Virus record (IMG/VR): IMGVR_UViG_3300023184_003735
Location: 32,001 to 96,000 of that record
Origin: a virus
Length of the DNA stretch: 64,000 bases
Direction: 5' to 3' (one strand)
Shown in pieces: positions 3 to 63,012 of this stretch; position 1 is the stretch's first letter; each line of letters opens with the position of its first letter. The notes under the pieces are model-generated. The model was not told where the DNA came from and ran no database searches. It worked only from the letters and a program-made list of their open reading frames with translations. The position numbers and the translations under genes were made by a program.

Positions 3-3000
3 AACAATGTTATTTTAACTCGTGATCGAGATTATGTTGTGGCCACCAACGGACCTAGACTTACAATCGGTGTCGCACTTGCTGTTGGTGACACAGTTAC
101 TATTAATGAGTACAGTACCACCTATGGCAGTTTTGTGCCTAACACTCCAAGTAAAATGGGCTTGTATCCCAAGTGGGAACCCGAAATTACCACACTTGTA
201 ACCAGTAATGGTACAGGTGAATTTATTATTGGACATGACGGTAGTGAAACTCCGGTATTTGGAGACATACGAGATCAAGTGCTGTTGGAGTTTGAAACCA
301 GAATCTACAGCAACATCAAACAAGATGGCAATCCAGTACCTCTCACAATTGAAAATGTATTACCTGGCCAGTTCCGTAGCACTGAATACAGTTTTGAAGA
401 AATTAACAATATTTTTGGTACAGATTTATTGAGTTATTGCGGTTGGAACAAATTAGATTATAAATCTCAAACGTTCACCGCCACCAATGAATTCACATGG
501 AACTACAGTAATACTACTAATAAACTCAATAATGAAAATTTACTAGGTGCCTGGCGTGGTATCTATCGCTATTTCTATGACACACAACAGCCTAGTTACA
601 CTCCCTGGGAAATGCTAGGATTAACCACAGAACCTGTCTGGTGGGAAAGTCGTTACGGCCCAGCACCATACACCGCAGACAACTTGGTTCTGTGGGATGA
701 TTTGGCTGCTGGTCTTGTGGCCGATCCTGCGGCACCATACTATAAACCTAAATATGCACGACCTGGTCTAACATCAGTTATTCCCACAGGAACTGAAGGC
801 GAACTATTAAGTCCACAAGACAGTGTAGTAGGCGGTGTGCCGCTCAATCAAAATATTGTCTCCAGATATCAAAAAAGTTGGGCCATTGGCGATGGCGGCC
901 CAGTTGAAGCATCTTGGTGGAATAGTTCTGGATACCCATTCTCAGTAATGCATGTGTTGGCTGTTACTCGTCCAGCAAAGTTCTTTTCTTTGTTTGCTGA
1001 TAGAGATCTGTACAAGTTTGATACAGACTACAACCAATATTTGTACAATGGTCGCTATAGATTAGATGCCAATGGTATTGAAGTATACGGCAATGATGTC
1101 AGTAAAGCCAGCTACATCAACTGGATTGTGGACTACAATAGGCAGACTGGAATTAATTCAACAGATCTGTTGACCGCTGATCTCAAGGCCTTGGATGTTA
1201 GACTATGTTATCGAATGGCCAGTTATTCGGATAAACAGTATATAAAATTAATTACTGAAAAGTCTAGTCCTAATAGCACTAACACAACGTTAACGATTCC
1301 CGATGAAAGTTACAACATCTTGTTGTATAAAAACCAGCCGTTTGATCAAATCCGATACAGTAGTGTGGCAGTGCAAAAAGTTGACGGCGGCTACGCAGTA
1401 TTTGGGTATGGAACAACACAATCTTATTTTGAAATACTACAAAGTCAATCTGTGGGCAAACTACAAGAATACAGTGCAGGTGGGATCACAGTACGTGTGC
1501 CAACTTTTTATTCCGACAATGTGACACAAGTTCCATACGGATTTGTTTTTGTGAACGAAACCGCAGTGAGCGATTTCTTGCTGAGTTATGGCAAACTATT
1601 AGAAAAGCAAGGATTGACATTTACTGATCGAGTGAATGGGTATACCCTAGATTGGTCAAGAATGGTTACTGAGTTTTTGTATTGGAGTCAGCAAGGCTGG
1701 AATACAAATGCCATTATCAACTTGAATCCCTTGGCTGGTGGCCTCACAGTTACCCGCCCTGGGGCAGTAGTTGATAGTATTGTAACTGAAACCAGTGAAA
1801 ACTTATTACTGGATCAAAATTCAAATGAAATCCCCACACGCTCATTAAATGTTGTTCGATTAGGCAACACGTTCACCATACAACCTCTAACTACACAAAG
1901 TATAAGTTATATTAATTTGAGATTTACCAACTACGAACACATGATAGTGTTAGACAATCAAAGTGTGTTTGGAGATTTAATATACAACCCAGTAACAGGT
2001 GCAAGACAAAGTAGATTAAATCTAGTGGCCGTAACTACTAGTGACTGGAACGGAAGTGTAGATACTCCTGGTTTTATTTTAAATCAAGACAATGTGCAGG
2101 AGTGGACTGGCCTAAAGACTTACTCCAAAGGTGAAATTGTTAAGTACAAAAATGTATACTGGTCTGCATTGACCATTGTACAACCCAGCATCAAATTTGA
2201 TTTTAATGTTTGGGCACAGAGTGATTACACTCAACTTGAATTAGGTTTACTACCAAACCTGGCCAATAAAGCTGACCAATTAGCCAACAGTTATAATATC
2301 AATGCCGCTAATATTGAAACTGATAATGATTTATTATCGTACGGCTTGATTGGTTTTAAACCTCGACAATATCTGGCCGCATTGAATCTTGATGATGTTA
2401 GCCAAGTCAATGTGTATCGTCAATTCCTAGGAACCAAAGGTACCATCTTGGCAGCCGAATTGTTCAAAGCCGCCAACCTAGGCAAAGAAGCTGCTGACTA
2501 TACCATCTATGAAAACTGGGCAGTACAACGTGCAGTATACGGCGCCAATGCCAATCGCAGTTTCTTTGAATTGAGATTGAATCGTGCATTACTGGATAGT
2601 AATCCTAGTTTGGTACAGGTTGTCGTGCCACAACAATCAAGCGAAGCAGACCAAACTATTTTTCTAACAGATGTGTGGCGGTCAAGTTATAAACTTACCA
2701 GCACCGCGATTCTTCCTACCACAACTGAATTGCCCACTGACGTTGGGTTGCCTTCGGCAGGGTATGTAAGTCTCAATGATACCGACATCACAGTGTTTGA
2801 TATCACAAACACAGCCAGTCTGGCAGCCAACATAGATTCAATTGAAGTAGGCACAAGTATCTGGGTGGCCAAGATCAACGATTATGACTGGGGAATTTAT
2901 CGTGCTCAAGCAGTACCCGGACAGATACAACACGTTTGCGACAACTTGAATGGTACAAGCCGTGTGATTTTTAATGATCAGCACGGCTTAGCAGTTGGCG

Positions 3001-52585: not shown

Positions 52586-53124
52586 TACAAGGTCTCGCCG
52601 CCTACTGTACGGTTACATGCACACAATTCTCCAGTCTGCAATGCGTCTAATACACGCAATGTTTCTTCTGGGCTACGACCCACGTTCAAGTTGTTAACTG
52701 TGACGTGTTGGATTTCATTGTTGGGGTCAATGATGAATGTTGCACGTAGTGCGGCACCTGCTGGAGCATAGAACACACCCAGTTGTTCAATTAATGATAA
52801 CTCACCACGCTGTGTGTCAGCAAACTGATGGTGGGTGATCTTCTTAAGATCTTCATGTGCTGTTTGCCATGCCACTTTGCAAAACTCATTGTCTGTTGAA
52901 CCGGTTAACAAAATAGCATCACGGTCGGCAAAGTCCGTGGCCAACCGGTCATAGGCCACAATCTCAGTTGGGCACACAAATGTAAAATCTTTTGGATAGT
53001 ACACAATCACTTTCCACTTGCCTTCGAATGATTCGTCAGTAATGGTATAAAATGCGTCTTGGGGTTGTCCAGGTTTCACGCCAGTGACAGCAAATGGTGT
53101 TAACTTATCGCCTACAGTTTTCAT
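52585..53124 (-). CDS. ahpC: Peroxiredoxin
   Basis: YPKDFTFVCPTE, RATFIIDP, GRSPEETLR. Confidence 0.93.
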   Translation of the reverse strand: MKTVGDKLTPFAVTGVKPGQPQDAFYTITDESFEGKWKVIVYYPKDFTFVCPTEIVAYDRLATDFADRDAILLTGSTDNEFCKVAWQTAHEDLKKITHHQFADTQRGELSLIEQLGVFYAPAGAALRATFIIDPNNEIQHVTVNNLNVGRSPEETLRVLDALQTGELCACNRTVGGETL

Positions 53125-53246
53125 ATTTTCTCCTTGATTAATGAAACTCAGTGTTTGTACTGAGTCATTATTATATAGCATAGGAGATGTCTAAGTCAAG
53201 GCATTTTGCCATTGATTTTTTCTATGTTGACAATTGATTTTGTAAA

Positions 53247-53555
53247 TTATGTAGGATCAACTTGAGAACTGGTTATGTTACCAGGATAAGTTAAAGAGGT
53301 TGGCACGGTTTGCATTGTTTCAAGCCAGGCATTGGCAATTTCCAATGTGTCCCAGGAACGCACTACAGTTCTTGTACCAGTATCATAATCTATGGTTTCA
53401 CTAACAAGATTGTCTGTATCTGTTGGTATTCCTTGCGATTGAAAAAATTCAAGTAATGGTGGTTTTGATTTCAATGTAAATTCTCTCACCGTTTCGGCCA
53501 TGACTTCTTGAGAATCTTGATAGGTAAATCTAAAAACTACGGTAGTTGTTGGCAT
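53247..53555 (-). CDS. Hypothetical protein
   Basis: AAGGAGG RBS; TATAAATA at 53587-53580. Confidence 0.65.
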   Translation of the reverse strand: MPTTTVVFRFTYQDSQEVMAETVREFTLKSKPPLLEFFQSQGIPTDTDNLVSETIDYDTGTRTVVRSWDTLEIANAWLETMQTVPTSLTYPGNITSSQVDPT

Positions 53556-53588
53556 ATTAGCCTCCTTAAGTTGATCATGTATTTATAC

Positions 53589-53665
53589 TGGCCGGCCCTG
53601 AGGGACTCGAACCCCCAACCTCCAGTTTCGAAGACTGGCACTCTAATCCATTGAGTTAAGGACCG
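53589..53665 (-). tRNA. tRNA-Arg(TCG)
   Basis: Cloverleaf; CCAGT-CTTCGAA-ACTGG anticodon arm; encoded CCA. Confidence 0.92.
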
Positions 53666-53671
53666 TTTTGT

Positions 53672-53745
53672 TGGTGCTCCTAACTGGTAACGATCCAGTG
53701 TTTCTACATTACCAATGCCGTGTAATGCTATTATACTATGAGAGC
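53672..53745 (-). tRNA. tRNA-Thr(GGT)
   Basis: Anticodon loop TTGGTAA; atypical T-loop ATCGTTA; some stem mismatches. Confidence 0.8.
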
Positions 53746-53748
53746 AAT

Positions 53749-53822
53749 TGGAGCGGGATAGGAGAATCGAACTCCTACGATAACCTTGGCAAGGTCACAG
53801 GCAACCATTACATCAATCCCGC
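53749..53822 (-). tRNA. tRNA-Gly(GCC)
   Basis: GCGGGAT acceptor strand, loop TTGCCAA, TCCA end. Confidence 0.92.
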
Positions 53823-53828
53823 CTAAAC

Positions 53829-54299
53829 TTACGCTGCCAAACTCTTGAATCTATCTGCGGCGTAACTGGCTGCAAATGCTTGGGGTTTGACAAAAGGTAT
53901 CACATTACATGTACCTTTGATGTATCCAATGGCTTGTGAAATTACACAACTTGATCCGTGCATTTCGTTGGGATTGATGTCCAGGTGAACCTCAACTTCT
54001 CGCCCTTCTAGTACCTCTGCCAGTTTAAGGTACAATTCGCTCACTTTGTATACTTCGGTCATCAAACGTAAACTAGGGCGACTGGCCTTCTGGTCCCAGT
54101 CGCGTTCACGTTGTACTTCGCCAAACAGTTTGCAACCGTTGTTGCCATTGATATGGACCACAATAGCCAGCACATAATCGGCATGCCAGGCACCTTCTAC
54201 TTTGACACGTTCACTATCGCAACCAAGATAGATTTTTGTTTCAGGTGTTTGGGCCCGGATAAATTCTGCCACTTGGTCAATGTCTAGTTTTTTCATCAT
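53829..54299 (-). CDS. RNase H-like YkuK/DUF458-family protein
   Basis: IYLGCDS, EVHLDIN, ASYAAD motifs. Confidence 0.75.
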   Translation of the reverse strand: MMKKLDIDQVAEFIRAQTPETKIYLGCDSERVKVEGAWHADYVLAIVVHINGNNGCKLFGEVQRERDWDQKASRPSLRLMTEVYKVSELYLKLAEVLEGREVEVHLDINPNEMHGSSCVISQAIGYIKGTCNVIPFVKPQAFAASYAADRFKSLAA

Positions 54300-54339
54300 T
54301 TGCCTTTTATTTAACTCTATAAACATTACGGTTTTATTA

Positions 54340-54416
54340 TGGTGCCCCAAGAGAGACTCGAACTCTCAAAATTTGGCTTTTAAGACCAACACGTATACCA
54401 ATTCCGTCATCGGGGC
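54340..54416 (-). tRNA. tRNA-Leu(TAA), short variable loop
   Basis: Loop CTTAAAA; 77 nt. Confidence 0.88.
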
Positions 54417-54424
54417 AAAAATAC

Positions 54425-54498
54425 TGGCACGGGAACTAGGGCTCGAACCTAGAATGACAGAGTCAAAGTCTGTAGTGTTACCATTACACCATTCCCGA
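54425..54498 (-). tRNA. tRNA-Gln(TTG)
   Basis: ACAGA-CTTTGAC-TCTGT; GCCA end. Confidence 0.92.
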
Positions 54499-54508
54499 AC
54501 AAAAATCT

Positions 54509-54583
54509 TGGTGGATGAGAGTAGAGTCGAACTACCACCGGACTCCGTATGAAGGAGGGGCACTACCATTATGCTACTCATCC
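54509..54583 (-). tRNA. tRNA-CAT (elongator Met, or lysidine-modified Ile2)
   Basis: Loop TTCATAC; G1-C72 paired. Confidence 0.85.
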
Positions 54584-54584
54584 T

Positions 54585-54666
54585 TGGTACCCCTGCCCCG
54601 ACTCGAACGGGGATATCATACTCCTCTGTTTGAGAGAGGCGACTTTACCAATTTGTCCACAGGGGC
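54585..54666 (-). tRNA. tRNA-Leu(CAA)
   Basis: CCTCT-CTCAAAC-AGAGG. Confidence 0.9.
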
Positions 54667-54671
54667 CGACT

Positions 54672-54748
54672 TGGGGTGCATGATGGGATTCGAACCCACG
54701 AGTATCGGAATCACAATCCGAGGTCTTGACCGCTTGACGACACGCACC
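54672..54748 (-). tRNA. tRNA-His(GTG)
   Basis: Loop TTGTGAT; G-1:C73. Confidence 0.93.
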
Positions 54749-54828
54749 ATACAAAAACACACTGCCTCTCTTTATGGTCGGAGCCCATGGTAAAGACGTC
54801 GCTCCTCGGCAGTGTGTTTTTGTATGGT
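54746..54828 (-). ncRNA. Long-stem inter-tRNA RNA element A
   Basis: 21-bp perfect inverted repeat, 54746-54766 and 54808-54828. Confidence 0.6.
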
Positions 54829-54852
54829 AGGGGCACAGAGAATCGAACTCTA
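54825..54852 (-). pseudogene. Orphan tRNA 3' fragment (T-arm, acceptor strand, CCA)
   Basis: TAGAG-TTCGATT-CTCTG-TGCCCCT-ACCA, starting at the HNH stop codon; no 5' half. Confidence 0.8.
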
Positions 54853-55431
54853 CTTCTCTAACAATCTTTTTGCTCTGGAATAGTTGTTACCCTTTGCCGC
54901 AATTCCTGCTTTGAGCAAACCTTGTCTTATACTACTGGTTTCTTTAAGACATTGTAGTAAAAATTCATCGGTTACTACATTTACGCCGTTTTTAGAAGGT
55001 TTGTTTCGTCCCCTCCATGTATCAGTGATACTATGGCAGTTTGGGCACAGTCCTTCTAAATTTTCTCTAGTATTGTTTTGATTGTTGCCATCTTTGTGCT
55101 CAAGTTCAAGTGGAATTTTGAACCCCTGCCACTCACTTACGCCACATTTATTACAGCAATGATTTTGTTCTTCAAATACTCTGCGTCGTCTGTTTTCCAT
55201 ACCTAATTCAGAAAATGGAGTAGCATTATATTTGTCTAGCCACGCCTGTTTGATATTTGCTCTCCATTGATCTACATCAGAGATAAGTCCACGTGTACTA
55301 GGCTTTCCCTTTAATGCAATACTTTTTTTACGTTTACTTTCATCGGAAAACTCCCGACTATTAGCACATGTTCTAGAACAAAATGTTCCAGATTTGCTAT
55401 GTTCTGTTTTACACTTAGGACATTGTTTCAT
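54850..55431 (-). mobile_element. Free-standing HNH homing endonuclease inside the tRNA array
   Basis: CPKC..FCSRTC, CNKC, LELEHKDGN...N...LCPNCH; AT-rich. Confidence 0.85.
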
Positions 55432-55491
55432 ATCGAACCCTATTAAATTATAGAAGTATTTAGTAGAGTTCCATATAAAACAACTCATAAA

Positions 55492-55565
55492 TGGTGAGAC
55501 CGGAAGGTACTGCCCCTTCTTAGTCGGATTAAAAGTCCGATACTTTACTTTTAAGTTACGATCCC
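55492..55565 (-). tRNA. tRNA-Lys(TTT), divergent
   Basis: TCGGA-CTTTTAA-TCCGA; T-loop GGCAGTA; D-loop lacks GG. Confidence 0.75.
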
Positions 55566-55617
55566 ACTAATCTTATCACTCTTGTCACTAGTCATGACAC
55601 TTCTCCTTAGAAAAAAT

Positions 55618-55692
55618 TGGTGCCGCCGGGTGGGAACGATCCACCGACCCTTGCCTTATCAAGACAATGCTCTACCACTGAGCTACGGAGGC
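55618..55692 (-). tRNA. tRNA-Ile(GAT)
   Basis: Loop TTGATAA; T-loop ATCGTTC. Confidence 0.88.
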
Positions 55693-55705
55693 TATAAATA
55701 TGCGT

Positions 55706-55936
55706 ATGATTACCGCTGACAATGCCATGATATTCTTGTACCAGGCGGCACAAGGCACTTATCAACAACGATTTTATTCTACTACCACACGCAGGTTCAC
55801 TCTTGATACCATGCTGATCAATCCACGGAAAGAGTTTAAAATTGATACTACGTTTGTGGTGCCTCCTCCAGGTTCCGACCCTGGTTCCCCGGATTTTCAG
55901 TCCGGTGCTATGACCACATCAGCTAAAGAGGCATAA
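55706..55936 (+). CDS. Small ORF antisense to the tRNA array
   Basis: TATAAATA (55693-55700)-N5-ATG; the 3' end overlaps tRNA-Phe on the opposite strand. Confidence 0.45.
   Translation: MITADNAMIFLYQAAQGTYQQRFYSTTTRRFTLDTMLINPRKEFKIDTTFVVPPPGSDPGSPDFQSGAMTTSAKEA
55857..55932 (-). tRNA. tRNA-Phe(GAA)
   Basis: CCGGA-CTGAAAA-TCCGG; T-loop GTCGGAA. Confidence 0.88.
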
Positions 55937-55937
55937 T

Positions 55938-56013
55938 TGGTACATCCTGACGGGCTCGAACCGCCGACAGCCTCGGTGTAAGCGAGGAACTCTACCAACT
56001 GAGTTAAGGATGC
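55938..56013 (-). tRNA. tRNA-Val(TAC)
   Basis: CCTCG-CTTACAC-CGAGG. Confidence 0.93.
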
Positions 56014-56018
56014 ATGTT

Positions 56019-56111
56019 TGGCGGAAGACGGAGGAGTCGAACCCCATCCCATTTTGTGAGAACCTGGTTTTCAAGGCCAGTCGCGGCACCAACGCCACTG
56101 CATCATCTTCC
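56019..56111 (-). tRNA. tRNA-Ser(TGA) with 8/4 acceptor/T-stem fold
   Basis: GGAAGATG/CGTCTTCC 8-bp acceptor stem, 4-bp T-stem, long variable arm, loop CTTGAAA, G73. Confidence 0.85.
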
Positions 56112-56117
56112 TGAATT

Positions 56118-56195
56118 TGGAGCAACGGGCTGGATTCGAACCAGCGGCTTTTGGGATTTGCAATCCCATGCATTGGGCCACTCTGCCACCGTTGC
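56118..56195 (-). tRNA. tRNA-Cys(GCA)
   Basis: TGGGA-TTGCAAA-TCCCA; U73. Confidence 0.92.
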
Positions 56196-56199
56196 ATAT

Positions 56200-56277
56200 T
56201 GGTCGGAATGGTGGGATTCGAACTCACGACCCTCTGCTCCCAAAGCAGATGCGCTAACCAGACTGCGCTACACTCCG
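56200..56277 (-). tRNA. tRNA-Pro(TGG)
   Basis: TCTGC-TTTGGGA-GCAGA. Confidence 0.94.
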
Positions 56278-56513
56278 AATTTTTTCTTGATCCACATACC
56301 AAACAGTGTGCCACAGTAGGCACCTGCTAGAGCAGGTATCAAGGCCCAATGGTCTTCTGTGTAGTTGATTACTGCTACACTGGCTGTGAAGGTCACTGCC
56401 ATGCTCCACCACGCGGCCATTAAGGGACGATTGTCTTGAATTGATTTCACAAAGTAAACGTAAATCAAGTCAGTTGCAAATACTGCAAAAAAAGTTATGA
56501 TATAAGCCCACAT
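56268..56513 (-). CDS. Small membrane protein
   Basis: Three hydrophobic helices. Confidence 0.6.
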   Translation of the reverse strand: MWAYIITFFAVFATDLIYVYFVKSIQDNRPLMAAWWSMAVTFTASVAVINYTEDHWALIPALAGAYCGTLFGMWIKKKFGV

Positions 56514-56514
56514 A

Positions 56515-56745
56515 TTATTTCTTCTTGTCTAGTGTGGGTTCTTGCGGGTTGTCTAATTCATGCGGTTCAGCGAATCTTGCGTTGCCACCGATGCCTTTCC
56601 AACTGTCTTCTGTGAAGATTCTGATGGGTCGCCAGTATCGAGCAATGATATTGTTGATCACCACAAGTGCAATTACCACGGCTATAAAGCCCAGTGCTGT
56701 CAAAATGCTACCGGCTAAAAATACTGCCGCTTGATCCATGTCCAT
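56515..56745 (-). CDS. Small membrane protein
   Basis: AAGGA RBS; N-terminal transmembrane helix. Confidence 0.6.
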   Translation of the reverse strand: MDMDQAAVFLAGSILTALGFIAVVIALVVINNIIARYWRPIRIFTEDSWKGIGGNARFAEPHELDNPQEPTLDKKK

Positions 56746-56761
56746 ATGTTTTTCCTTTGAG

Positions 56762-56835
56762 TGGAGCGGGATAGCGGAATCGAACCGCTGACACTAACTT
56801 GGAAGGATAGGGTAATACCATTTTACGAATCCCGC
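56762..56835 (-). tRNA. tRNA-Gly(TCC)
   Basis: GCGGGAT acceptor strand; loop CTTCCAA. Confidence 0.9.
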
Positions 56836-56858
56836 TCTTATACATTACAATGTATGCT

Positions 56859-56934
56859 TGGTGCCCCCACCATGATTCGAACACGGCACCTACTGATTAC
56901 AAATCAGTTGCTCTACCGAATGAGCTATAGGGGC
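56859..56934 (-). tRNA. tRNA-Thr(TGT)
   Basis: ACTGA-TTTGTAA-TCAGT. Confidence 0.93.
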
Positions 56935-56940
56935 AAATTT

Positions 56941-57016
56941 TGGCTCTCTAGCGTGGGCACGATCCACGGACCTAACGGTTAACAGCCGTTTGCTCTACCA
57001 ACTGAGCTACTAGAGA
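56941..57016 (-). tRNA. tRNA-Asn(GTT)
   Basis: AACGG-CTGTTAA-CCGTT; T-loop ATCGTGC. Confidence 0.9.
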
Positions 57017-57210
57017 ATAATTTCAACTGACTTGGCGTCTTGATCACGTATGGCCCACTCAGTGCTACCCACACGTATGTGTAGACAACAGGCCCCGCGT
57101 CGTAACACAGTCACAGTTCGTGTGGCAACAATGCCCATTTGCTGTAGTCGTTCGTTAGTGACGCCGGCTATCACAGCCTGGTCATGCGTTTTTAAGTCGT
57201 TCAATGTCAT
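57010..57210 (-). CDS. feoA: FeoA-like SH3-domain protein
   Basis: MTLNDLK...ERLQQMGI...VTVLRR...IRVGSTEWAIR..DAKSVEI pattern. Confidence 0.7.
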   Translation of the reverse strand: MTLNDLKTHDQAVIAGVTNERLQQMGIVATRTVTVLRRGACCLHIRVGSTEWAIRDQDAKSVEIIL

Positions 57211-57216
57211 ATGCTT

Positions 57217-57306
57217 TGGCGGAGCGTTAGGGAGTCGAACCCTATCAACCACTTTCATGATTGTACGGATTAGCAATCCGCTGCCTTACCATCCGGCCCA
57301 CGCTCC
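57217..57306 (-). tRNA. tRNA-Ser(GCT)
   Basis: Loop TTGCTAA; long variable arm. Confidence 0.93.
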
Positions 57307-57314
57307 TCTATAGT

Positions 57315-57343
57315 ATTATATAGTCAACGTGTGACCATGTCAA
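57315..57343 (-). promoter_or_regulatory. Internal sigma70 promoter in the tRNA array
   Basis: Perfect TTGACA-N17-TATAAT. Confidence 0.75.
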
Positions 57344-57351
57344 CAACAATT

Positions 57352-57436
57352 TGGTGGAGATGACTTGAGTCGAACAAGTAGTGCCAGGGGCGGCTGATTT
57401 ACAGTCAGCTGGGGTTACCAATTTTCCTACATCTCC
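57352..57436 (-). tRNA. tRNA-Tyr(GTA)
   Basis: GCTGA-CTGTAAA-TCAGC; variable arm. Confidence 0.92.
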
Positions 57437-57440
57437 AATT

Positions 57441-57515
57441 TGGTGGACCGTCCCGGGTTCGAACCGGGGACTGAGGCTTGCAAAGCCACTGTGTTCCCAA
57501 CTATACCAACAGCCC
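57441..57515 (-). tRNA. tRNA-Ala(TGC)
   Basis: G3:U70 pair; loop TTTGCAA. Confidence 0.92.
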
Positions 57516-57521
57516 AAATTT

Positions 57522-57599
57522 TTGGCGACCCCGAAAGGATTTGAACCTCTGACATTTGGTTTTGGAGACCAACGTTCTGCCGGACTGAACTACGGAGCC
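57522..57599 (-). tRNA. tRNA-Trp(CCA)
   Basis: TTGGT-CTCCAAA-ACCAA. Confidence 0.92.
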
Positions 57600-57620
57600 A
57601 TAACGCACTCTTGCGAATGC

Positions 57621-57703
57621 GTGTATCGAAGCACACCAAGGTCACAAACCCCGACCGTTCATGGCCGCACGAACCTTTTCGGTACTGGTATGCTTCGATA
57701 CAC
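57621..57703 (-). ncRNA. Long-stem RNA element B
   Basis: 18-bp stem (57686-57703 with 57621-57638); its one mismatch is a U-G wobble on the minus strand. Confidence 0.6.
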
Positions 57704-57797
57704 TCGGATTTTTTTATGTACAAGAACATAAGCCATCCCCGAGGCCGCCCATTTGCAGTTTTGAGTGTTGCAGGCTCGCGTTGCCTTGCACTAAATG

Positions 57798-57865
57798 AAA
57801 AACCCTGGAGTTTTAATTCCAGGGTCCTTGGTGTGAATACGGTTGTATACTATGTTAGGACCCTG
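57798..57865 (-). promoter_or_regulatory. Attenuator 1: terminator/antiterminator
   Basis: Terminator ACCCTGGA-N8-TCCAGGGT-TTTT; CAGGGTCCT at the end of the leader ORF pairs (9 bp) with AGGACCCTG, the terminator's 5' arm. Confidence 0.75.
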
Positions 57866-57968
57866 TGTCTCCTGGAATGCTTGCTGTCAAGCGACCATAG
57901 ACATGTGACCAGGCGGATGTCTGATTAAACATTGTCTTGGGTAGCGATAAACAGAGTTGCGTTTTCAT
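57855..57968 (-). CDS. Putative leader peptide 1 (37 aa)
   Basis: MKTQLCLSLPKTMFNQTSAWSHVYGRLTASIPGDTGS*; ATG 7 nt after the TATAAT of TTGACA-N17-TATAAT (58004-57976). Confidence 0.65.
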   Translation of the reverse strand: MKTQLCLSLPKTMFNQTSAWSHVYGRLTASIPGDTGS

Positions 57969-58048
57969 AGTATCAATTATAGTTTATTTATCATCTCGTG
58001 TCAACCACGACATGCTCTTTCTGTGTTATTTATACAACACAGTTGAAT

Positions 58049-58122
58049 TGGATGCGGGTGACAGATTCGAACTGCCGATGCACCTGGCTTATGAGACCGG
58101 TGTGGTGGCCACCCTACCCGCG
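58049..58122 (-). tRNA. Initiator-like tRNA-Met(CAT), atypical
   Basis: C1:A72 mismatch, loop CTCATAA, reduced D-arm; own promoter TTGACA-N17-TATAAT at 58167-58139. Confidence 0.75.
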
Positions 58123-58163
58123 ATAATATTATTTATAAATTATAAAACAAATAAAATTATTTG

Positions 58164-59018
58164 TCAACCAGGATACAAATTTTCTTCACTGTCAAATTTG
58201 TAGTCGTCTGGCAATACCACCTTGGTTGAGTGGTCAATCAACTCGGCTAACTGGGCGGTGGGTACTCCGGTGACTCTAATTTGTCTTCTCCTAGAGGTGC
58301 AAATTGGAACACCATGCAAAAAATAATCACTATGCAAGTATACCGGATCGTTTGTGGTAAACACTTTTTTGTTGTCATCTCCATCCAGTGCCCACCATAG
58401 CGGAACACCGCCATCACTGATGTTTAATGCAACGATCACATGACCTTGCTGATATAATCCATTTTCGGCACCAGCATTTTTAGCGAAAGGCAAACCAGCA
58501 TCAGCAGAATATCTTGCATCACGATGTATGTTACTGAAACTTCCTGGTGCCAAACTCACACAGTGTATGTTCACAATTCGTTTAAATGGCAATTGCTTCA
58601 AAATAAATTCTACAATTTTTAAATGTTTAAATTCGGGTTTTATTTTATAAAGTCTGTTCAAATGATGATTGCGCATGCAAGACCCACCTTCTCCAGCATT
58701 ACGTTTTACAAAATCGCTATCTGATTCAATAGTGATAAGTTCTAGCAGTTGATTCATTTCAAAGCCAGAAATCCCACGAATTTCTTCAGTGTATTGTCCA
58801 GAATTACCAATTTCTATCGACACGTTCATTTTATCATACAAGATTGGATCTATCATTCCCCATGCCCGATTGAGATTACGAGTACCATCTAAAGTTTGCC
58901 GGCGTGTACATATAGAGTGCGAAGTTGGTAAAATATATTGGTCATACTCTTCGACAAAGAGTTTGTGGTCAAAGTCGAGATTGAGTTTTGCGTAAGCAAG
59001 ATTTGCAAATTGGTGCAT
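58164..59018 (-). CDS. Oxygenase-like hypothetical protein
   Basis: NIHRD (HxD) ... FLHGV ... RRQIRV. Confidence 0.5.
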   Translation of the reverse strand: MHQFANLAYAKLNLDFDHKLFVEEYDQYILPTSHSICTRRQTLDGTRNLNRAWGMIDPILYDKMNVSIEIGNSGQYTEEIRGISGFEMNQLLELITIESDSDFVKRNAGEGGSCMRNHHLNRLYKIKPEFKHLKIVEFILKQLPFKRIVNIHCVSLAPGSFSNIHRDARYSADAGLPFAKNAGAENGLYQQGHVIVALNISDGGVPLWWALDGDDNKKVFTTNDPVYLHSDYFLHGVPICTSRRRQIRVTGVPTAQLAELIDHSTKVVLPDDYKFDSEENLYPG

Positions 59019-59095
59019 GTTTTTAGTAGTAGATATTTTGAAATCCAACAAGTGGAGTTTCTATTGAAAGTACTATATTTAGTTCAATTGATAAT

Positions 59096-60547
59096 TCATT
59101 GATCATGTTTTTCTAATTCGGGCACAAAATCTTTAAGTTTTACTCCACGACTATTATCAAGTACACGATTAAATTCAAAAAATTTTTTTAAACTTTCAGT
59201 ATCGGGTAGTGAATTTTTTACTTGAATTTCAATTCTATCAATTGTGGTTTTAAAATACTGATCTTGCTGATATCTCTTTAGTTGTTTGATCAACTGTAAA
59301 TTGTCAAGAATTGTTTGTGGCTCGGGATGATTCCAAGGCGATTGATCAGGTTCTACGCCAGCAACAAGATTCATGGAACAATGAACTTTTAAATATTTGT
59401 CATCTAAGAAATTATAAAGATCAAACAGGTGTGCAATATTATAGATACTGATCACAGTATTGAAGTTTGCAACACGACCCATATCATAAAGTGTAGCAAC
59501 ATTGCGACACCAGTTGTCCCATTTGATAGGCCATCTAATGTAGCGATTTAATTGATCAAATCCGTCTACACTCACACTAAATTCTAGATTAGGAAATTTG
59601 TTACAGTAGTCTAACATCTGAGTTGATAAGACTGATGCATTGGTGCTGACTTCAAATGCAATATCATTGCGTTGCTTTTCAATGCATTGGTCAAGGAATT
59701 GAAAAAATTCCTTGTTTATAGTGGGCTCTCCTCCGGCTATTTGTAGACATCGCACATGGTCAATGTCAACGTGATCAAAAATACCTTGTTTTTTGTGATT
59801 AGTATAGTTTGATAGACCAATTGCTCTATATTCTCTAGCAATGAGATGCGAATTGCCAGGAACACACATTCGACACATTGCATTACAACGATTGTCTAAT
59901 ACCGCATATACATACAATGGTGAAGGTACAGTTGTTACATCTTGTTGCGTTTTAATATTAAACTTGCTACTCCAAGTTTGAGTAAAATTTTGTCTTTGAC
60001 TGGTCATTCCTAGATCTTCTTTTTGCCAACAATGACTGCATTCATCAACACGTTTTCCCTGCAACATACTCTGTTTTACGGACTGGCTCCATGATGCATC
60101 AAATTTATCAGATGGTCTTGATTGCATGTGACAGCAATGACTTTTTTGCTTTTGTGTTTGGTATAGCCCAACGAATGGTACAATGCAAAAGGCTGGATTA
60201 GTATGTAATTCTTTTAGAATCCATGGTACCAAGTCGGGATTTTGATATTCCACTACAAAAGATTTTTGTAAGTCAAATATCATGCTGATTGTTATTGCAA
60301 AATCTTCAGCATTATTGTAAGATTCTTGATCTTGATCTAACAATATAATTTTGCATGATTTACCATACAACAGGGTCTGCAACTCAGCCGGTGTTATATC
60401 GTATATACTGGTATGATAGACACCAGAAGATAAGTTTGTATTTCGATCCAATACTAATTTATATTCAAGATCGTGTTGTTGTGCAATTTTTTGTGTAATT
60501 TTGTGTGCTATTTTATTGCCTGTGCCCACACATACAATTAGATTCAT
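59096..60547 (-). CDS. Radical SAM enzyme
   Basis: CIVPF..HCC..CSHC, CNAMCRMC, AGGEP; AT-rich. Confidence 0.88.
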   Translation of the reverse strand: MNLIVCVGTGNKIAHKITQKIAQQHDLEYKLVLDRNTNLSSGVYHTSIYDITPAELQTLLYGKSCKIILLDQDQESYNNAEDFAITISMIFDLQKSFVVEYQNPDLVPWILKELHTNPAFCIVPFVGLYQTQKQKSHCCHMQSRPSDKFDASWSQSVKQSMLQGKRVDECSHCWQKEDLGMTSQRQNFTQTWSSKFNIKTQQDVTTVPSPLYVYAVLDNRCNAMCRMCVPGNSHLIAREYRAIGLSNYTNHKKQGIFDHVDIDHVRCLQIAGGEPTINKEFFQFLDQCIEKQRNDIAFEVSTNASVLSTQMLDYCNKFPNLEFSVSVDGFDQLNRYIRWPIKWDNWCRNVATLYDMGRVANFNTVISIYNIAHLFDLYNFLDDKYLKVHCSMNLVAGVEPDQSPWNHPEPQTILDNLQLIKQLKRYQQDQYFKTTIDRIEIQVKNSLPDTESLKKFFEFNRVLDNSRGVKLKDFVPELEKHDQ

Positions 60548-60559
60548 TATAAATTTTGC

Positions 60560-60950
60560 TCGGTTAAATGCTCTGACATCCCTCGGCGGTAATTATAGAG
60601 CATTGAGTGATAGTCTTTCCACTACACACCGCAACTTGTACTCCTTCCACCCGCTTCCCGACAGGGACCGTTCTCGTATTGCTAACGCCGGTTAGGTTAG
60701 ACCGCATCTTTCGATGTGAGACTTATATTCCAAATCTCAGAACCACCCGTGCTTGTCACAGCACTTCTCATCGTCTGGGTCAGACTATCCAGTGACGCTG
60801 GAACGTTAGGGAAGGGCTGGCCCCATAACGGGATACCACTTAGCCTTACTTATCTGTCGCGTTGGAGTAAGGCACCCTAATTAGGAGAGAAGCCACGGTT
60901 GCAGGACCTAGTGCCTTTTGCAAGGGAAGTATCCAGGCGGTGTGGCTTCA
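60560..60950 (-). ncRNA. Large structured ncRNA region (unassigned)
   Basis: About 390 nt, GC-richer than its flanks, no credible ORF; helices GAAGCCAC/GTGGCTTC, GCCTTACT/AGTAAGGC, GTGC/GCAC, TGAGA/TCTCA, AATGCTCT/AGAGCATT. Confidence 0.6.
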
Positions 60951-60956
60951 AAAACT

Positions 60957-61031
60957 TGGCGGTCCGAACGGGAATCGAACCCGTCTCCTCGCAGTGACAG
61001 TGCGAAATACTAACCGATATACTATCGAACC
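60957..61031 (-). tRNA. tRNA-Asp(GTC)
   Basis: TCGCA-CTGTCAC-TGCGA; G73. Confidence 0.93.
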
Positions 61032-61191
61032 AAATGTTATAGTCAAGCACCGAGAATGCCAATTTATGCGTCCTCCGCTAAGAGTGCAAAAGCCGAATGC
61101 AGTTATATTAGGATCAGTCGCCGGCCGCTGTGACCCGAATAGTGTTGGCGTCCCATACACGATACCTTATCGATGCTTGACTATAACATTT
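61032..61191 (-). ncRNA. Long-stem RNA element C
   Basis: 22-bp terminal stem (61170-61191 with 61032-61053), one U-G pair. Confidence 0.65.
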
Positions 61192-61315
61192 ACCATATAG
61201 AAGCACTCTCGCCAGCAGGCCTAGGAGGGGACTTGCACCACTGAAACTTTCGCATCTGCAGATACTAGGCTTCTTCTCCTGCTTTGACTTATGCCAAGAA
61301 TACTTCTATATGGTA
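61191..61315 (-). ncRNA. Long-stem RNA element D
   Basis: 19-bp terminal stem (61297-61315 with 61191-61209), two U-G pairs. Confidence 0.65.
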
Positions 61316-61386
61316 CTCCGTGGGGGAATCGAACCCCTCCTTACCCGCGTGAAAGGCGAGTGTCCTAACCGATAGACGAACGGAGC
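61311..61386 (-). tRNA. tRNA-Glu(TTC)
   Basis: Loop CTTTCAC; cloverleaf with CCA. Confidence 0.92.
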
Positions 61387-61394
61387 ATGTAGTT

Positions 61395-61602
61395 TTACAT
61401 TGAGGAATCATTGTGGATCTTGTTCTGCTTGGCTTGCGAGGCCAAGTCACCACGATCATTACATCCAGACGATCCGCCGCTTTTCCGGATCACTTCGCAA
61501 GGAAGGAGAGCCTATTTCATGACTGATAGCAGATGGGCACCCGCCGATGCCGGATTCATCTCTACCAATGCCACTAACGGGTCTGGTAACCTCTTTGTAT
61601 AT
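61395..61602 (-). ncRNA. Structured ncRNA, about 200 nt (unassigned)
   Basis: Terminal TACAAAGAGG/CCTCAATGTA; internal CCAGAC/GTCTGG, GATCCG/CGGATC, CTTGGC/GCCAAG. Confidence 0.55.
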
Positions 61603-61656
61603 TTTAAAGATCTGTTGCAACCAGTATCGATCTACTTTGTTGCTTTGTTAAGTTCT

Positions 61657-61685
61657 ATTGTAGCAGAGTTCCATTTATTGGTCTA
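61657..61685 (-). promoter_or_regulatory. Sigma70-like promoter just downstream of terminator 2
   Basis: TAGACC-N17-TACAAT; resembles the 49355 promoter (GACCAATAAAT...TGCTA). Confidence 0.6.
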
Positions 61686-61695
61686 GCACTAAATG

Positions 61696-61759
61696 AAAAA
61701 CCCTCCAAATTGGAGGGCCTTTAGTGATGTAGTACAAAATACTTACATCCAAAGACCCT
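61696..61759 (-). promoter_or_regulatory. Attenuator 2: terminator/antiterminator
   Basis: Terminator CCCTCCA-ATT-TGGAGGG-TTTTT; AGGGTCTTTGG in the leader pairs with CTAAAGGCCCT, plus GATGTA/TACATC. Confidence 0.75.
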
Positions 61760-61820
61760 GCAGGCAATCGCGCTCGTGTTCTGAACGGAAAGTGTTAGCG
61801 ATTGCGTTTATTGTCATCAT
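61743..61820 (-). CDS. Putative leader peptide 2 (25 aa)
   Basis: MMTINAIANTFRSEHERDCLQGLWM*; ATG 6 nt after the TACAAT of TTGACA-N17-TACAAT (61855-61827). Confidence 0.65.
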   Translation of the reverse strand: MMTINAIANTFRSEHERDCLQGLWM

Positions 61821-61851
61821 AGTGTTATTGTATACGATTATTTATACTTTG

Positions 61852-63012
61852 TCAACGAAAATAATTTTGGATTTTGCCAGATCTGCTGATGTCGTTTGTG
61901 ACACAATGAATGCCGCAATCCCAGAAATATTTGTGACGGAACGGCACCACATGCACTTCGATGCCATGTCGTGCGCAGGCCTTCTCTACCTGGTCGTTGT
62001 GTGTGCTGACCACAATGTTCTTGGGATCCACTATCAGGATGTTGACGTCGAACACAGTTTCACTAACCTGTCCCACCCACTCGTCAAAGTAGTGATCCAC
62101 CATGTGAACCAAGTTGTTGTCCTGTTCAAACCCGGGCATGAACCAACGTCCCTTGTTGCGTTTCATGGAGTACTCAAACTCGCGCATGTGTGCGTAGTTG
62201 CTGGGTGGCAGGTACACCACTTCCCAGTCTGGGAAGGTGTCAGCATAGGTGGGAACATCATTGAGGCTGATGATCAGACCCGGCGTCACTGGGCAATACA
62301 CCGCATCACCGTGCCCACCTGAATTGACCACTCTATTTTGAGTTGTAGGAAACAACTGATTCACTTGATCTAGTATGCCTTGTTTGTCATCATGATAGGT
62401 TTGTGTGGCAAAGTACAAGTCCTCACCTATGCGACTCACAAAACAGCCGTTGATGAAATCAAGATCAGTTGACACAATCTCATTGCCCTGCGCCTTGATG
62501 TCCGCAAACACATGAGAATAAAACCCCAACTTGGCGTCTAGATGCGCTTGATCAGTCTGATTGAATCTAGCAAACTTGGCCTGTACCTCTTCGGCAAACT
62601 CAGGATAGTCTGCATAAAAATCCGCAGGACGTATGTGGTCGTTCCACCAAGGCTGTTTGTTCTGTCGGTAAAACACTGACCATGCATGACTGGCATTGGG
62701 AATTCGGGGAACCCAAAATCTGTCCTGAATCATCAAAAAGTAATCTCTTGGTGCTGTGGGCGGTTGCACCCACTTGTTATCTATGTACAGTTGGGACAAG
62801 TCCGTGGGAAACTCCGGACGCATCACACGCACACCAAATCGATCTGTCAACAGTCGTATGAGTCGTTGATAGTCTTCTTCGGTCTCTTGTGCAAGAGTTT
62901 CAAAGCGTTCTCGGGTGGCAGAGTTCTTGATCCAACTGTAGAACTCTGGGGGATAAGTGCGACCCACTAATGAGACTTGTAGTGGATCCCAGTGTTGATA
63001 TACTGAATACAT
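61852..63012 (-). CDS. Amidinotransferase, second paralog
   Basis: HWDPLQVSLVG, APRD, GHGD, DVNIL, CGIHCVTND. Confidence 0.8.
   Translation of the reverse strand: MYSVYQHWDPLQVSLVGRTYPPEFYSWIKNSATRERFETLAQETEEDYQRLIRLLTDRFGVRVMRPEFPTDLSQLYIDNKWVQPPTAPRDYFLMIQDRFWVPRIPNASHAWSVFYRQNKQPWWNDHIRPADFYADYPEFAEEVQAKFARFNQTDQAHLDAKLGFYSHVFADIKAQGNEIVSTDLDFINGCFVSRIGEDLYFATQTYHDDKQGILDQVNQLFPTTQNRVVNSGGHGDAVYCPVTPGLIISLNDVPTYADTFPDWEVVYLPPSNYAHMREFEYSMKRNKGRWFMPGFEQDNNLVHMVDHYFDEWVGQVSETVFDVNILIVDPKNIVVSTHNDQVEKACARHGIEVHVVPFRHKYFWDCGIHCVTNDISRSGKIQNYFR

Follow-up and report, generated by a model that had tools for sequence, protein, structure and literature searches.

Introduction

The enterobacterial trpL leader and the multivalent thrL and ilv leaders are leader-peptide attenuators of amino acid operons. 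In these systems, a short leader open reading frame (ORF) carries codons that match what the operon supplies, and a ribosome at the end of that ORF masks the antiterminator that competes with a terminator. Here, we describe a comparable locus in a 64,000-nucleotide stretch of viral DNA, called the window (the whole stretch analyzed, bases 32001-96000 of the 124,183-base viral contig IMGVR_UViG_3300023184_003735; CheckV completeness, 36%). The contig is probably part of a very large phage from a lake. Our subject is Leader 1, a 37-codon ORF with its promoter and terminator upstream of an array of 22 tRNA genes. We consider it likely that Leader 1 encodes the leader peptide through which a ribosome-mediated transcription attenuator gates a phage tRNA operon.

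The locus differs from trpL, thrL, and ilv in several ways. What would be regulated is a set of phage tRNAs and not biosynthetic enzymes, and up to 18 amino acids are represented, mostly by one to five codons each and without runs of any single codon. The start is probably leaderless. There is no well-supported 1:2 hairpin, and therefore read-through is predicted as the untranslated default. T-box leaders also tie tRNA status to a choice between terminator and antiterminator in the 5' leader; however, the T-box is itself the binding site for uncharged tRNA, it contains no ORF, and synthetase and amino acid genes are under its control. The conserved frame described below points to sensing by a ribosome rather than to tRNA binding of the T-box type.

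The usual view is that tRNA genes are regulated through their promoters, by growth rate and the stringent response, and we know of no tRNA operon that has been shown to be gated by a leader peptide. In the collection covered by our full-text searches, we found no paper in which a leader peptide controls tRNA genes. Relative to the known systems, what would be new here is that the element gates phage tRNA genes and that leader content co-varies with the tRNA set.

A broad sensor has been described for whiB7 of Mycobacterium smegmatis, whose upstream ORF (uORF) contains 19 of the 20 amino acids. In the parts of that report that deal with the uORF, its content sets what is sensed, it is induced when tRNAs, synthetases, or biosynthetic genes for 18 of the 20 amino acids are knocked down, and a single Trp codon suffices for the Trp response, which is abolished by its removal (PMC10274678). 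The sections of a second report that concern whiB7 describe its increase upon tRNA cleavage by VapC5 (PMC10287673). Leader 1 and the whiB7/wblC leaders of mycobacteria and other Actinobacteria are alike in that an ORF with most amino acids serves, or would serve, as a broad sensor. Unlike Leader 1, the whiB7/wblC uORFs as presented there are cellular, are Ala enriched, and control a drug resistance transcription factor, and those sections report no co-variation with a gene set. The genes downstream of Leader 1 are tRNAs and not a WhiB-family regulator. Leader 1 would work in a similar way without being a member of that family, and no sequence relation was seen, although none was tested for.

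Results

Architecture of the Leader 1 locus

The elements of the locus are listed below (nt, nucleotides; bp, base pairs).

57976-58004, minus strand: Leader 1 promoter, sigma-70 type, TTGACA-17 nt-TATAAT, 12 of 12 consensus matches in a consensus scan
57855-57968, minus strand: Leader 1 ORF, 37 sense codons plus TAA, peptide MKTQLCLSLPKTMFNQTSAWSHVYGRLTASIPGDTGS followed by the stop
57873-57968, minus strand: putative sensing zone, codons 1-32, cut 10 nt before the antiterminator strand
57857-57865, minus strand: antiterminator 5' strand CAGGGTCCT, the last ORF codons plus the first base of the stop codon
57820-57828, minus strand: antiterminator 3' strand AGGACCCTG, 27 nt beyond the 5' strand, with a 5-nt overlap with the terminator 5' arm
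57798-57824, minus strand: predicted intrinsic terminator, CCCTGGA, 8-nt loop, TCCAGGG, and TTTTT, with a 7-bp GC-rich stem
53589-57599, minus strand: array of 22 tRNA genes with interspersed ORFs, covering 18 amino acids, without Asp and Glu

The distance from the end of the -10 box to the Leader 1 ATG is 7 nt, leaving an mRNA 5' leader that is probably absent or nearly so. Transcription would start at the consensus promoter, at the AUG or a few bases before it, and the RNA would fold into one of two exclusive helices, either the stronger antiterminator, whose 5' strand is made of the last ORF codons, or the terminator. A ribosome translating smoothly to the stop codon would cover the antiterminator strand, whereupon the terminator would form and transcription would end before the tRNA genes. 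A stall in the first 30 or so codons, caused by a scarce charged tRNA, or a failure of ribosomes to load would instead allow the antiterminator to form, with read-through to the spacer and the tRNAs. The outcome would be a feedback loop in which a shortage of any tRNA that the block supplies switches the block on. The locus has the parts of such an attenuator, namely, a short leader ORF, a terminator structure between this ORF and the genes, an exclusive antiterminator that a ribosome would be placed to mask, judging by the geometry, and codons that fit the operon product at the amino acid level.

A family of related elements

We searched for relatives with the 18 bases that follow the terminator stem, which are common to Leader 1 and to a sister unit in the window, Leader 2 (described below). 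This word lies outside the ORF, and therefore the tests made on the ORF are unbiased by the search. The scan returned 131 matches (16 viral-contig loci and 112 metagenome stretches, lake and other). Of 98 distinct matches with at least 150 nt upstream, 85 were family elements with the full architecture, and 13 were set aside as chance. The 85 elements carry 79 distinct ORFs in four classes: A, which is Leader 1-like (58 ORFs); B, which is Leader 2-like (7 ORFs); C (3 ORFs); and D (11 ORFs). Class D ORFs are longer, with 41 to 57 codons, and are not promoter proximal, lying behind an A-rich, purine-rich 5' leader (L062 10883-11083, plus strand; L008 155-364, minus strand). Alignment A2 holds 60 of 63 class A rows, three loci (L015, L012, and L005) having been dropped as divergent or partial. 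The same three were left out of the set of 55 of 58 class A ORFs used for the ratio of nonsynonymous to synonymous polymorphism (pN/pS).

One of the matches set aside, L029 (around position 897, oriented), combines a CCCTCC/GGAGGG terminator with a 29-codon ORF and a possible GGAGGGT/ACCCTCC antiterminator, and it may be a further divergent class or member. A blastn search with the leader region against 50,697 phage records gave zero matches and thus no cultured relative at the DNA level. Matches to PHROGs among 10 window proteins (radical-SAM, HNH, and carbamoyltransferase) give no taxonomic placement.

Leader content and the downstream tRNA set

We compared the amino acids of each leader with the tRNAs downstream, read within 6 kilobases (kb) or to the end of the locus. 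In 19 elements with at least 4 kb of downstream sequence, an amino acid with a downstream tRNA was absent from the leader in 9 of 286 cells. The leaders of 13 lineages show 28 amino acid absences, and in 24 of these the tRNA is also absent downstream. The 4 exceptions compare with 12.7 ± 1.9 when leaders and tRNA sets were re-paired, a result that 0 of 100,000 permutations reached (P < 1e-5), and with 21.6 expected under uniform loss. Class A alone, with 10 lineages, gave a P value of 0.0007. On a tree of 25 elements, about 12 independent pairs changed in the same direction, 1 changed in the opposite direction, and 12 showed no difference (sign test, 0.003). The amino acids that are absent from a leader are those without a downstream tRNA, and this is the decisive result.

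The absences differ by lineage. L015 lacks Cys and His; L027 lacks Cys, Glu, Leu, and Tyr; and a 20-member clade (MMKQQFCSM...) lacks His, Tyr, Asp or Glu, Arg, and Val. Three tRNA blocks examined in this clade are without Tyr and His and also without Asp, Glu, or both, and Arg is present in one block only; in L004, tRNAs for Tyr, His, Arg, Asp, and Glu lie upstream of the leader. Wherever there is enough sequence (43 of 43 cases), a class A leader is followed by tRNA-Trp or tRNA-Ala, and the first tRNA after a class B leader is tRNA-Glu in 7 of 7, 6 of them with at least 450 nt of downstream sequence. All 7 class B leaders contain both Glu and Asp.

Some of these loci have further peculiarities. 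The block upstream of the L004 leader includes a tRNA with the anticodon CUA (1637-1715, plus strand; ARAGORN "Pyl"), a possible amber suppressor. At L098 (1001-1166, plus strand), a leader of the "MMKTQCYSLLPK" type stands before the tRNA array type of another clade, and this locus looks like a recombinant, a natural mismatch. Transfer-messenger RNAs, which ARAGORN called as permuted and whose tags end in ALAA, lie within a few kilobases of leaders in L007 (6079-6696, minus strand), L016 (2517-2854, plus strand), and L017 (5912-6297, plus strand).

The putative sensing zone and the position of Asp and Glu

A ribosome that stalls closer than about 10 nt to the antiterminator strand is expected to cover it, and we therefore counted only codons upstream of this point, excluding L052, whose antiterminator was mis-called. 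In the window, the 32 zone codons hold exactly the 18 amino acids of the tRNA block (18 = 18). Exact identity at the 10-nt cut was also found in L007 (16 = 16) and L015 (17 = 17). With random codons, the probability of exact identity is 5e-4 for the window, 3e-4 for L007, and 9e-5 for L015, values that are optimistic in that the cut-off was picked after a scan. Total mismatches fell from 44 for the whole ORF to 34 or 35 at a cut of 6 to 9 nt and rose beyond it; permutation gave 60 to 61, with 0 of 100,000 reaching the observed value. The zone contains at least one codon for nearly every amino acid with an operon tRNA and avoids the others, with 6 or 7 exceptions in 13 lineages.

The placement of Asp and Glu is independent of the fine cut-off at the level of the classes. 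Of 57 class A leaders, 1 has Glu in the zone and 2 have Asp there, whereas 23 of 58 and 32 of 58, respectively, have them somewhere in the ORF, almost always in the masked tail. Glu is found in the zone of 7 of 7 class B, 3 of 3 class C, and 10 of 11 class D leaders. Genes for tRNA-Glu or tRNA-Asp follow the class B leaders and are among the downstream tRNAs of most class D elements, and of one class C element, with enough sequence. In Leader 1 itself, the sole Asp codon is GAC at codon 34 of 37, and the antiterminator 5' strand begins within codon 35. The original prediction had pointed to this fourth-last codon beside the antiterminator strand; the placement holds, and the codon belongs to the masked tail. 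The nontrivial evidence is the exact zone match together with the co-variation across related leaders.

Conservation of the reading frame

We next considered whether the ORF is real. All 79 distinct ORFs are open in frame 0, compared with 0 of 79 for frame +1 and 20 of 79 for frame +2, and the ATG is invariant across the 60 aligned class A rows. The ATG lies 6, 7, or 10 nt past the -10 box in 71 of 73 class A to C elements (class A, 7 nt in 47 and 10 nt in 14; class B, 6 nt in 7 of 7; class C, 6 to 7 nt). At the other end, the stop codon lies 39 to 53 nt before the terminator tail GGGTTTTT, despite ORF lengths that range from 25 to 57 codons. In the nucleotide alignment, gap runs within the ORF came in threes in 227 of 229 cases (3 nt in 215 runs, 6 nt in 12, and 1 nt and 2 nt in one run each), and those in the loop after the stop were of 1, 2, 5, 6, 9, 10, 11, 21, or 22 nt. 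The pN/pS ratio was 0.59 in frame versus 0.80 and 0.81 in the other frames, and change at codon positions 1, 2, and 3 was 49, 52, and 66. We therefore read the frame as kept and the peptide as weakly constrained, which at the sequence level is the signature of a leader whose translation outweighs its product.

In some stretches of the ORF (CCTGG, ATTCCAGG, and CAGGGTC), no codon position varies, which probably reflects a role of these stretches in the RNA. A motif, W..(G)R.NSIPG, is conserved in class A peptides. The Trp-Pro spacing is 12 residues (TnaC-like) in class A and some class D peptides and 9 or 14 in others, and class C is without Pro.

Two mutually exclusive helices

The antiterminator 5' strand lies within the ORF in 79 of 79 elements. 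Across the 60 class A sequences, the antiterminator helix was paired in 91.3% of 540 cells, with 36 changed on both sides, and the terminator helix was paired in 97.9% of 420 cells, with 24 changed on both sides. For each helix, 0 of 500 shuffles reached these values, and slid controls were paired in 57 to 62% of cells or lower. One alignment column sits in both helices and covaries with both of its partners. When the terminator 3' arm was withheld from a minimum-energy fold, the 5' arm paired with the ORF end by at least 6 pairs in 79 of 79 elements versus 356 of 790 shuffles. By folding and covariation, the antiterminator and the terminator are mutually exclusive helices. The antiterminator is the stronger of the two in both units of the window (Leader 1, -17.5 versus -11.5 kcal/mol; Leader 2, -20.3 versus -10.6 kcal/mol), and when the whole Leader 1 RNA is folded, the structure of lowest energy is the antiterminated one (z = -4.0). 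The Leader 1 terminator was not listed by a simple scan and was read from the sequence.

A further helix may form inside the ORF.

57871-57913, minus strand: candidate hairpin, CCUGG (codons 19-20) with CCAGG (codons 32-33)

It was paired in 99.7% of cells through one-sided C-to-U changes only, with zero compensatory pairs, and it could be a pause or timing structure. Two other pairings were tried and rejected. An inner P1 helix, GTCA/TGAC, was paired in just 18.6% of cells. The stretch ATTCCAGG is complementary in the window to the terminator arm CCTGGAAT and was considered as a second antiterminator strand; it was dropped since it was unchanged where the arm had changed, as read from alignment A2.

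We take the Rfam families to compare here to be Trp_leader, His_leader, Thr_leader, Leu_leader, and T-box. A cmscan of 53000-62000 at an E value of ≤1 found no leader or T-box family and nothing in the leader region; its matches were of tRNA type (RF00005, and RF01852 on tRNA-Ser), plus six far below gathering scores, four of them on the opposite strand. Contigs of relatives from RNA libraries (4 RNA runs), 88 to 99% alike, cover the leader; starts, ends, strand, and levels are unreadable from them, and DNA carry-over is possible. One extends upstream across the promoter to 58040, and the bins at 58129-58200 are without cover.

Codon and amino acid diversity

The original prediction had described Leader 1 as a sampler that maximizes codon diversity and matches the tRNAs downstream. 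Its counts were all correct upon recounting: the 37 codons include 32 distinct codons and 19 amino acids, with Glu alone absent. ARAGORN and Rfam likewise bore out 22 tRNAs for 18 amino acids, without Asp and Glu. All 18 of these amino acids are indeed present in the leader, a match that is almost automatic for an ORF with 19 amino acids.

The prediction had also proposed a comparison with random windows, and here the diversity was above expectation, but only by about 2 standard deviations (SD). Among 30,856 windows of 37 codons from 84 long ORFs of the 124-kb contig, the probability of at least 32 codons is 0.0014, and that of at least 19 amino acids is 0.024. Small ATG ORFs of the contig (n = 284) reach 32 codons in 2 cases and 19 amino acids in 5. 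Random codons of equal base composition give P values of 0.027 for codons, 0.033 for amino acids, and 0.004 jointly, and shuffles that preserve local composition give 0.04 and 0.05, respectively. The diversity of Leader 1 is real yet moderate and was chosen after the fact, and alone it carries no interpretation.

Whether related leaders keep this diversity has a divided answer. The near relatives of the window have 29 to 34 codons and 18 or 19 amino acids, and 8 of 11 class D leaders have all 20 amino acids. Amino acid diversity is above the random-codon expectation in 12 of 13 lineages (mean, +1.4 SD), and class means against the local-shuffle null are +0.5 to +1.7 SD, but the 20-leader clade has just 14 to 16 amino acids. 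Codon diversity is above the random-codon expectation in 10 of 13 lineages (mean, +0.6 SD), and distinct-codon counts average only +0.5 to +0.6 SD across the family. The idea that the leader maximizes codon diversity is therefore not supported; synonymous choice also shows no fit to the anticodons. Diversity is usually high and not maximized, and it appears to be a side effect of the amino acid match to a large tRNA set.

Leader 2

A sister unit on the same plan lies upstream of tRNA-Glu and tRNA-Asp.

61696-61855, minus strand: Leader 2, whole unit
61827-61855, minus strand: Leader 2 promoter
61743-61820, minus strand: Leader 2 ORF, 25 codons, MMTINAIANTFRSEHERDCLQGLWM
61751-61762, minus strand: Leader 2 antiterminator 5' strand
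61701-61717, minus strand: Leader 2 predicted terminator, followed by a T run

The leader promoters share a conserved ATAAATA or TATAAATA inside their 17-nt spacers, at 57985-57991 and 61839-61846 (minus strand) in the window and also in most relatives. We take this motif to resemble the T4 late-promoter box, and by that analogy it may mark a second start site used later in infection.

The tRNA array and its surroundings

Three further features of the locus are listed here.

57600-57797, minus strand: conserved structured spacer RNA, from the terminator to tRNA-Trp, about 200 nt, starting with the shared motif TTTTTCATTTAGTGC
57315-57343, minus strand: internal promoter, 12 of 12 consensus matches, directly before tRNA-Ser(GCU)
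58139-58167, minus strand: second perfect consensus promoter, just upstream of Leader 1, driving a lone tRNA-Met (58049-58122, minus strand)

A GGC-AACGCGA-GCC hairpin, AAACUGCAAAUGGGCGGCC, and a long stem are found in the spacer RNA, which is common to classes A, C, and D and has no Rfam family at an E value of ≤1. A small ORF within it (57659-57736) was ruled out as a conserved protein because it varies from 3 to 83 codons across relatives. Of the 22 tRNAs of the array, 20 came from ARAGORN and 2 more from Rfam. The added ones are read as Lys(UUU), 55495-55565, and Thr(GGU), 53675-53745, both on the minus strand. The ARAGORN default missed both; the former has an odd T-loop and adjoins an HNH endonuclease gene (54850-55488), and the latter was detected only at a relaxed threshold. 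The lone tRNA-Met was called by ARAGORN (anticodon at position 30) and has no Rfam tRNA model match at an E value of ≤1.

The internal promoter could feed the distal tRNAs independently of Leader 1. Because it is perfect and stands before tRNA-Ser, only tRNA-Trp, tRNA-Ala, and tRNA-Tyr are strictly behind the switch. A promoter-like site directly before tRNA-Ser was found in 5 of 25 relatives (L006, L035, L036, L056, and the Leader 2 row, which is the window's own site), and no internal consensus promoter was present within 6 kb in 9 of the 25 relatives examined.

Discussion

Several observations weigh against a translated attenuator tuned to its tRNA block. Transcription start, translation, stalling, and termination are all inferred from sequence. 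The Leader 1 ORF has no Shine-Dalgarno sequence, and a strictly leaderless start is not universal, since 14 class A relatives have the ATG 10 nt past the -10 box. The whole Leader 2 RNA folds in the terminated form, aided by A-U pairs with the T run, and some of the RNA-library contigs bridge the terminator (57742-57957 and 57798-57990). Leader 2 has 16 amino acids for two tRNAs, and the internal promoter before tRNA-Ser is hard to square with a tuning of Leader 1 to the full set of 22. On the side of the statistics, the zone cut-off was selected after scanning cut-offs, the tRNA sets are cut by locus ends, and the lineages share ancestry. Individual leaders also depart from the rule: the three examined from the 20-member clade lack Val (and L087 also lacks Arg) despite a downstream tRNA-Val, the L049 leader is without Cys, and the L098 leader has His, Arg, and Tyr without those tRNAs. 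Lastly, codons readable by the downstream anticodons numbered 339 of 436 versus 319 to 329 expected, which is no enrichment, and with relaxed U34 reading they numbered 361 of 449 versus 363 to 378 expected. As no synonymous match to the anticodons exists, the element is an amino acid sampler and not a codon maximizer.

Some of these points could be taken to mean that the attenuator is real and translated but senses the speed of translation or the supply of ribosomes in general, with amino acids not tuned to the tRNA block, and that both the high diversity and the match are products of drift and shared ancestry. The diversity of the window at only about 2 SD, the missing codon-to-anticodon match, the content of Leader 2, the internal promoter, and the 12 of 25 independent pairs that show no difference in tRNA set would all sit comfortably with such a sensor. 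It does not account for the match itself, which 0 of 100,000 permuted pairings reached and which holds in class A alone (P = 0.0007), for the 12-to-1 direction of the informative pairs, for class A zones that exclude Asp and Glu when the tails tolerate both, or for exact set identity in three lineages, and we regard it as unlikely. A more radical alternative is that the ORF is incidental and that the RNA is an untranslated switch; it might be a riboswitch, a leader that binds a protein or a tRNA, or a signal for processing. The absence of a Shine-Dalgarno sequence would then be natural, as would the invariance of CCTGG, ATTCCAGG, and CAGGGTC at all codon positions, as under RNA-level constraint, and the survival of the CCUGG/CCAGG pairing through wobble changes. 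However, an incidental ORF would have no reason to be open in 79 of 79 cases when the other frames are open in 0 and 20, to keep an invariant ATG and a fixed distance from stop to terminator, to take indels in threes next to an untranslated loop that takes them at any length, or to track the tRNA sets in its amino acids. There was also no Rfam match, T-box or other, and we find this explanation very improbable.

The element might, instead, be a separate small gene, for a functional micropeptide or a trans-acting small RNA, and the tRNAs would owe their expression to other promoters or to leakage. In favor of this view, one would predict a short transcript that stops at the terminator, the W..(G)R.NSIPG motif is conserved in class A, and the relevant sections of two reports on Sinorhizobium describe attenuator-derived RNAs and leader peptides that can act in trans (PMC6614838, PMC7298713). 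Yet the pN/pS ratio of 0.59 goes with an N-terminal half that changes freely, the conserved stretch of the peptide coincides with the RNA pairing segments, and 9 of 25 relatives are without another consensus promoter in the 6 kb downstream. A product acting in trans would also leave the covarying antiterminator and the tracking of tRNA sets unexplained. We give this possibility the least credence of all.

We therefore return to a ribosome-mediated attenuator that gates the tRNA operon. The original prediction saw in Leader 1 a broad-spectrum probe that stalls if almost any tRNA species is lost. What stands of this idea is the conserved frame, the switch, and a repertoire that follows the tRNA block; the maximizing of codons does not. 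A more specific and rather doubtful extension is that the leader takes a census of tRNAs in an arms race with the host, with the block mostly off until the ribosome stalls for tRNAs that the block replaces. On that interpretation, host tRNAs could run short because anticodon nucleases cleave them or because they are degraded during takeover. If it is true, the phage detects which class of tRNA has been attacked and answers with its own copies, and split operons such as that of Leader 2 respond separately.

The natural co-variation between leaders and tRNA sets makes the idea testable, and such leaders would offer synthetic biology a compact sensor of a chosen tRNA supply. Why phages carry tRNAs is presented as an open question in the passages of two reports that address it, between codon compensation and the replacement of tRNAs destroyed by defenses (PMC10264068, eLife 2023; PMC11464382, Nature 2024). 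If our model is right, it bears directly on that question: large phages would gauge decoding capacity separately for each amino acid and produce tRNAs of their own as needed.

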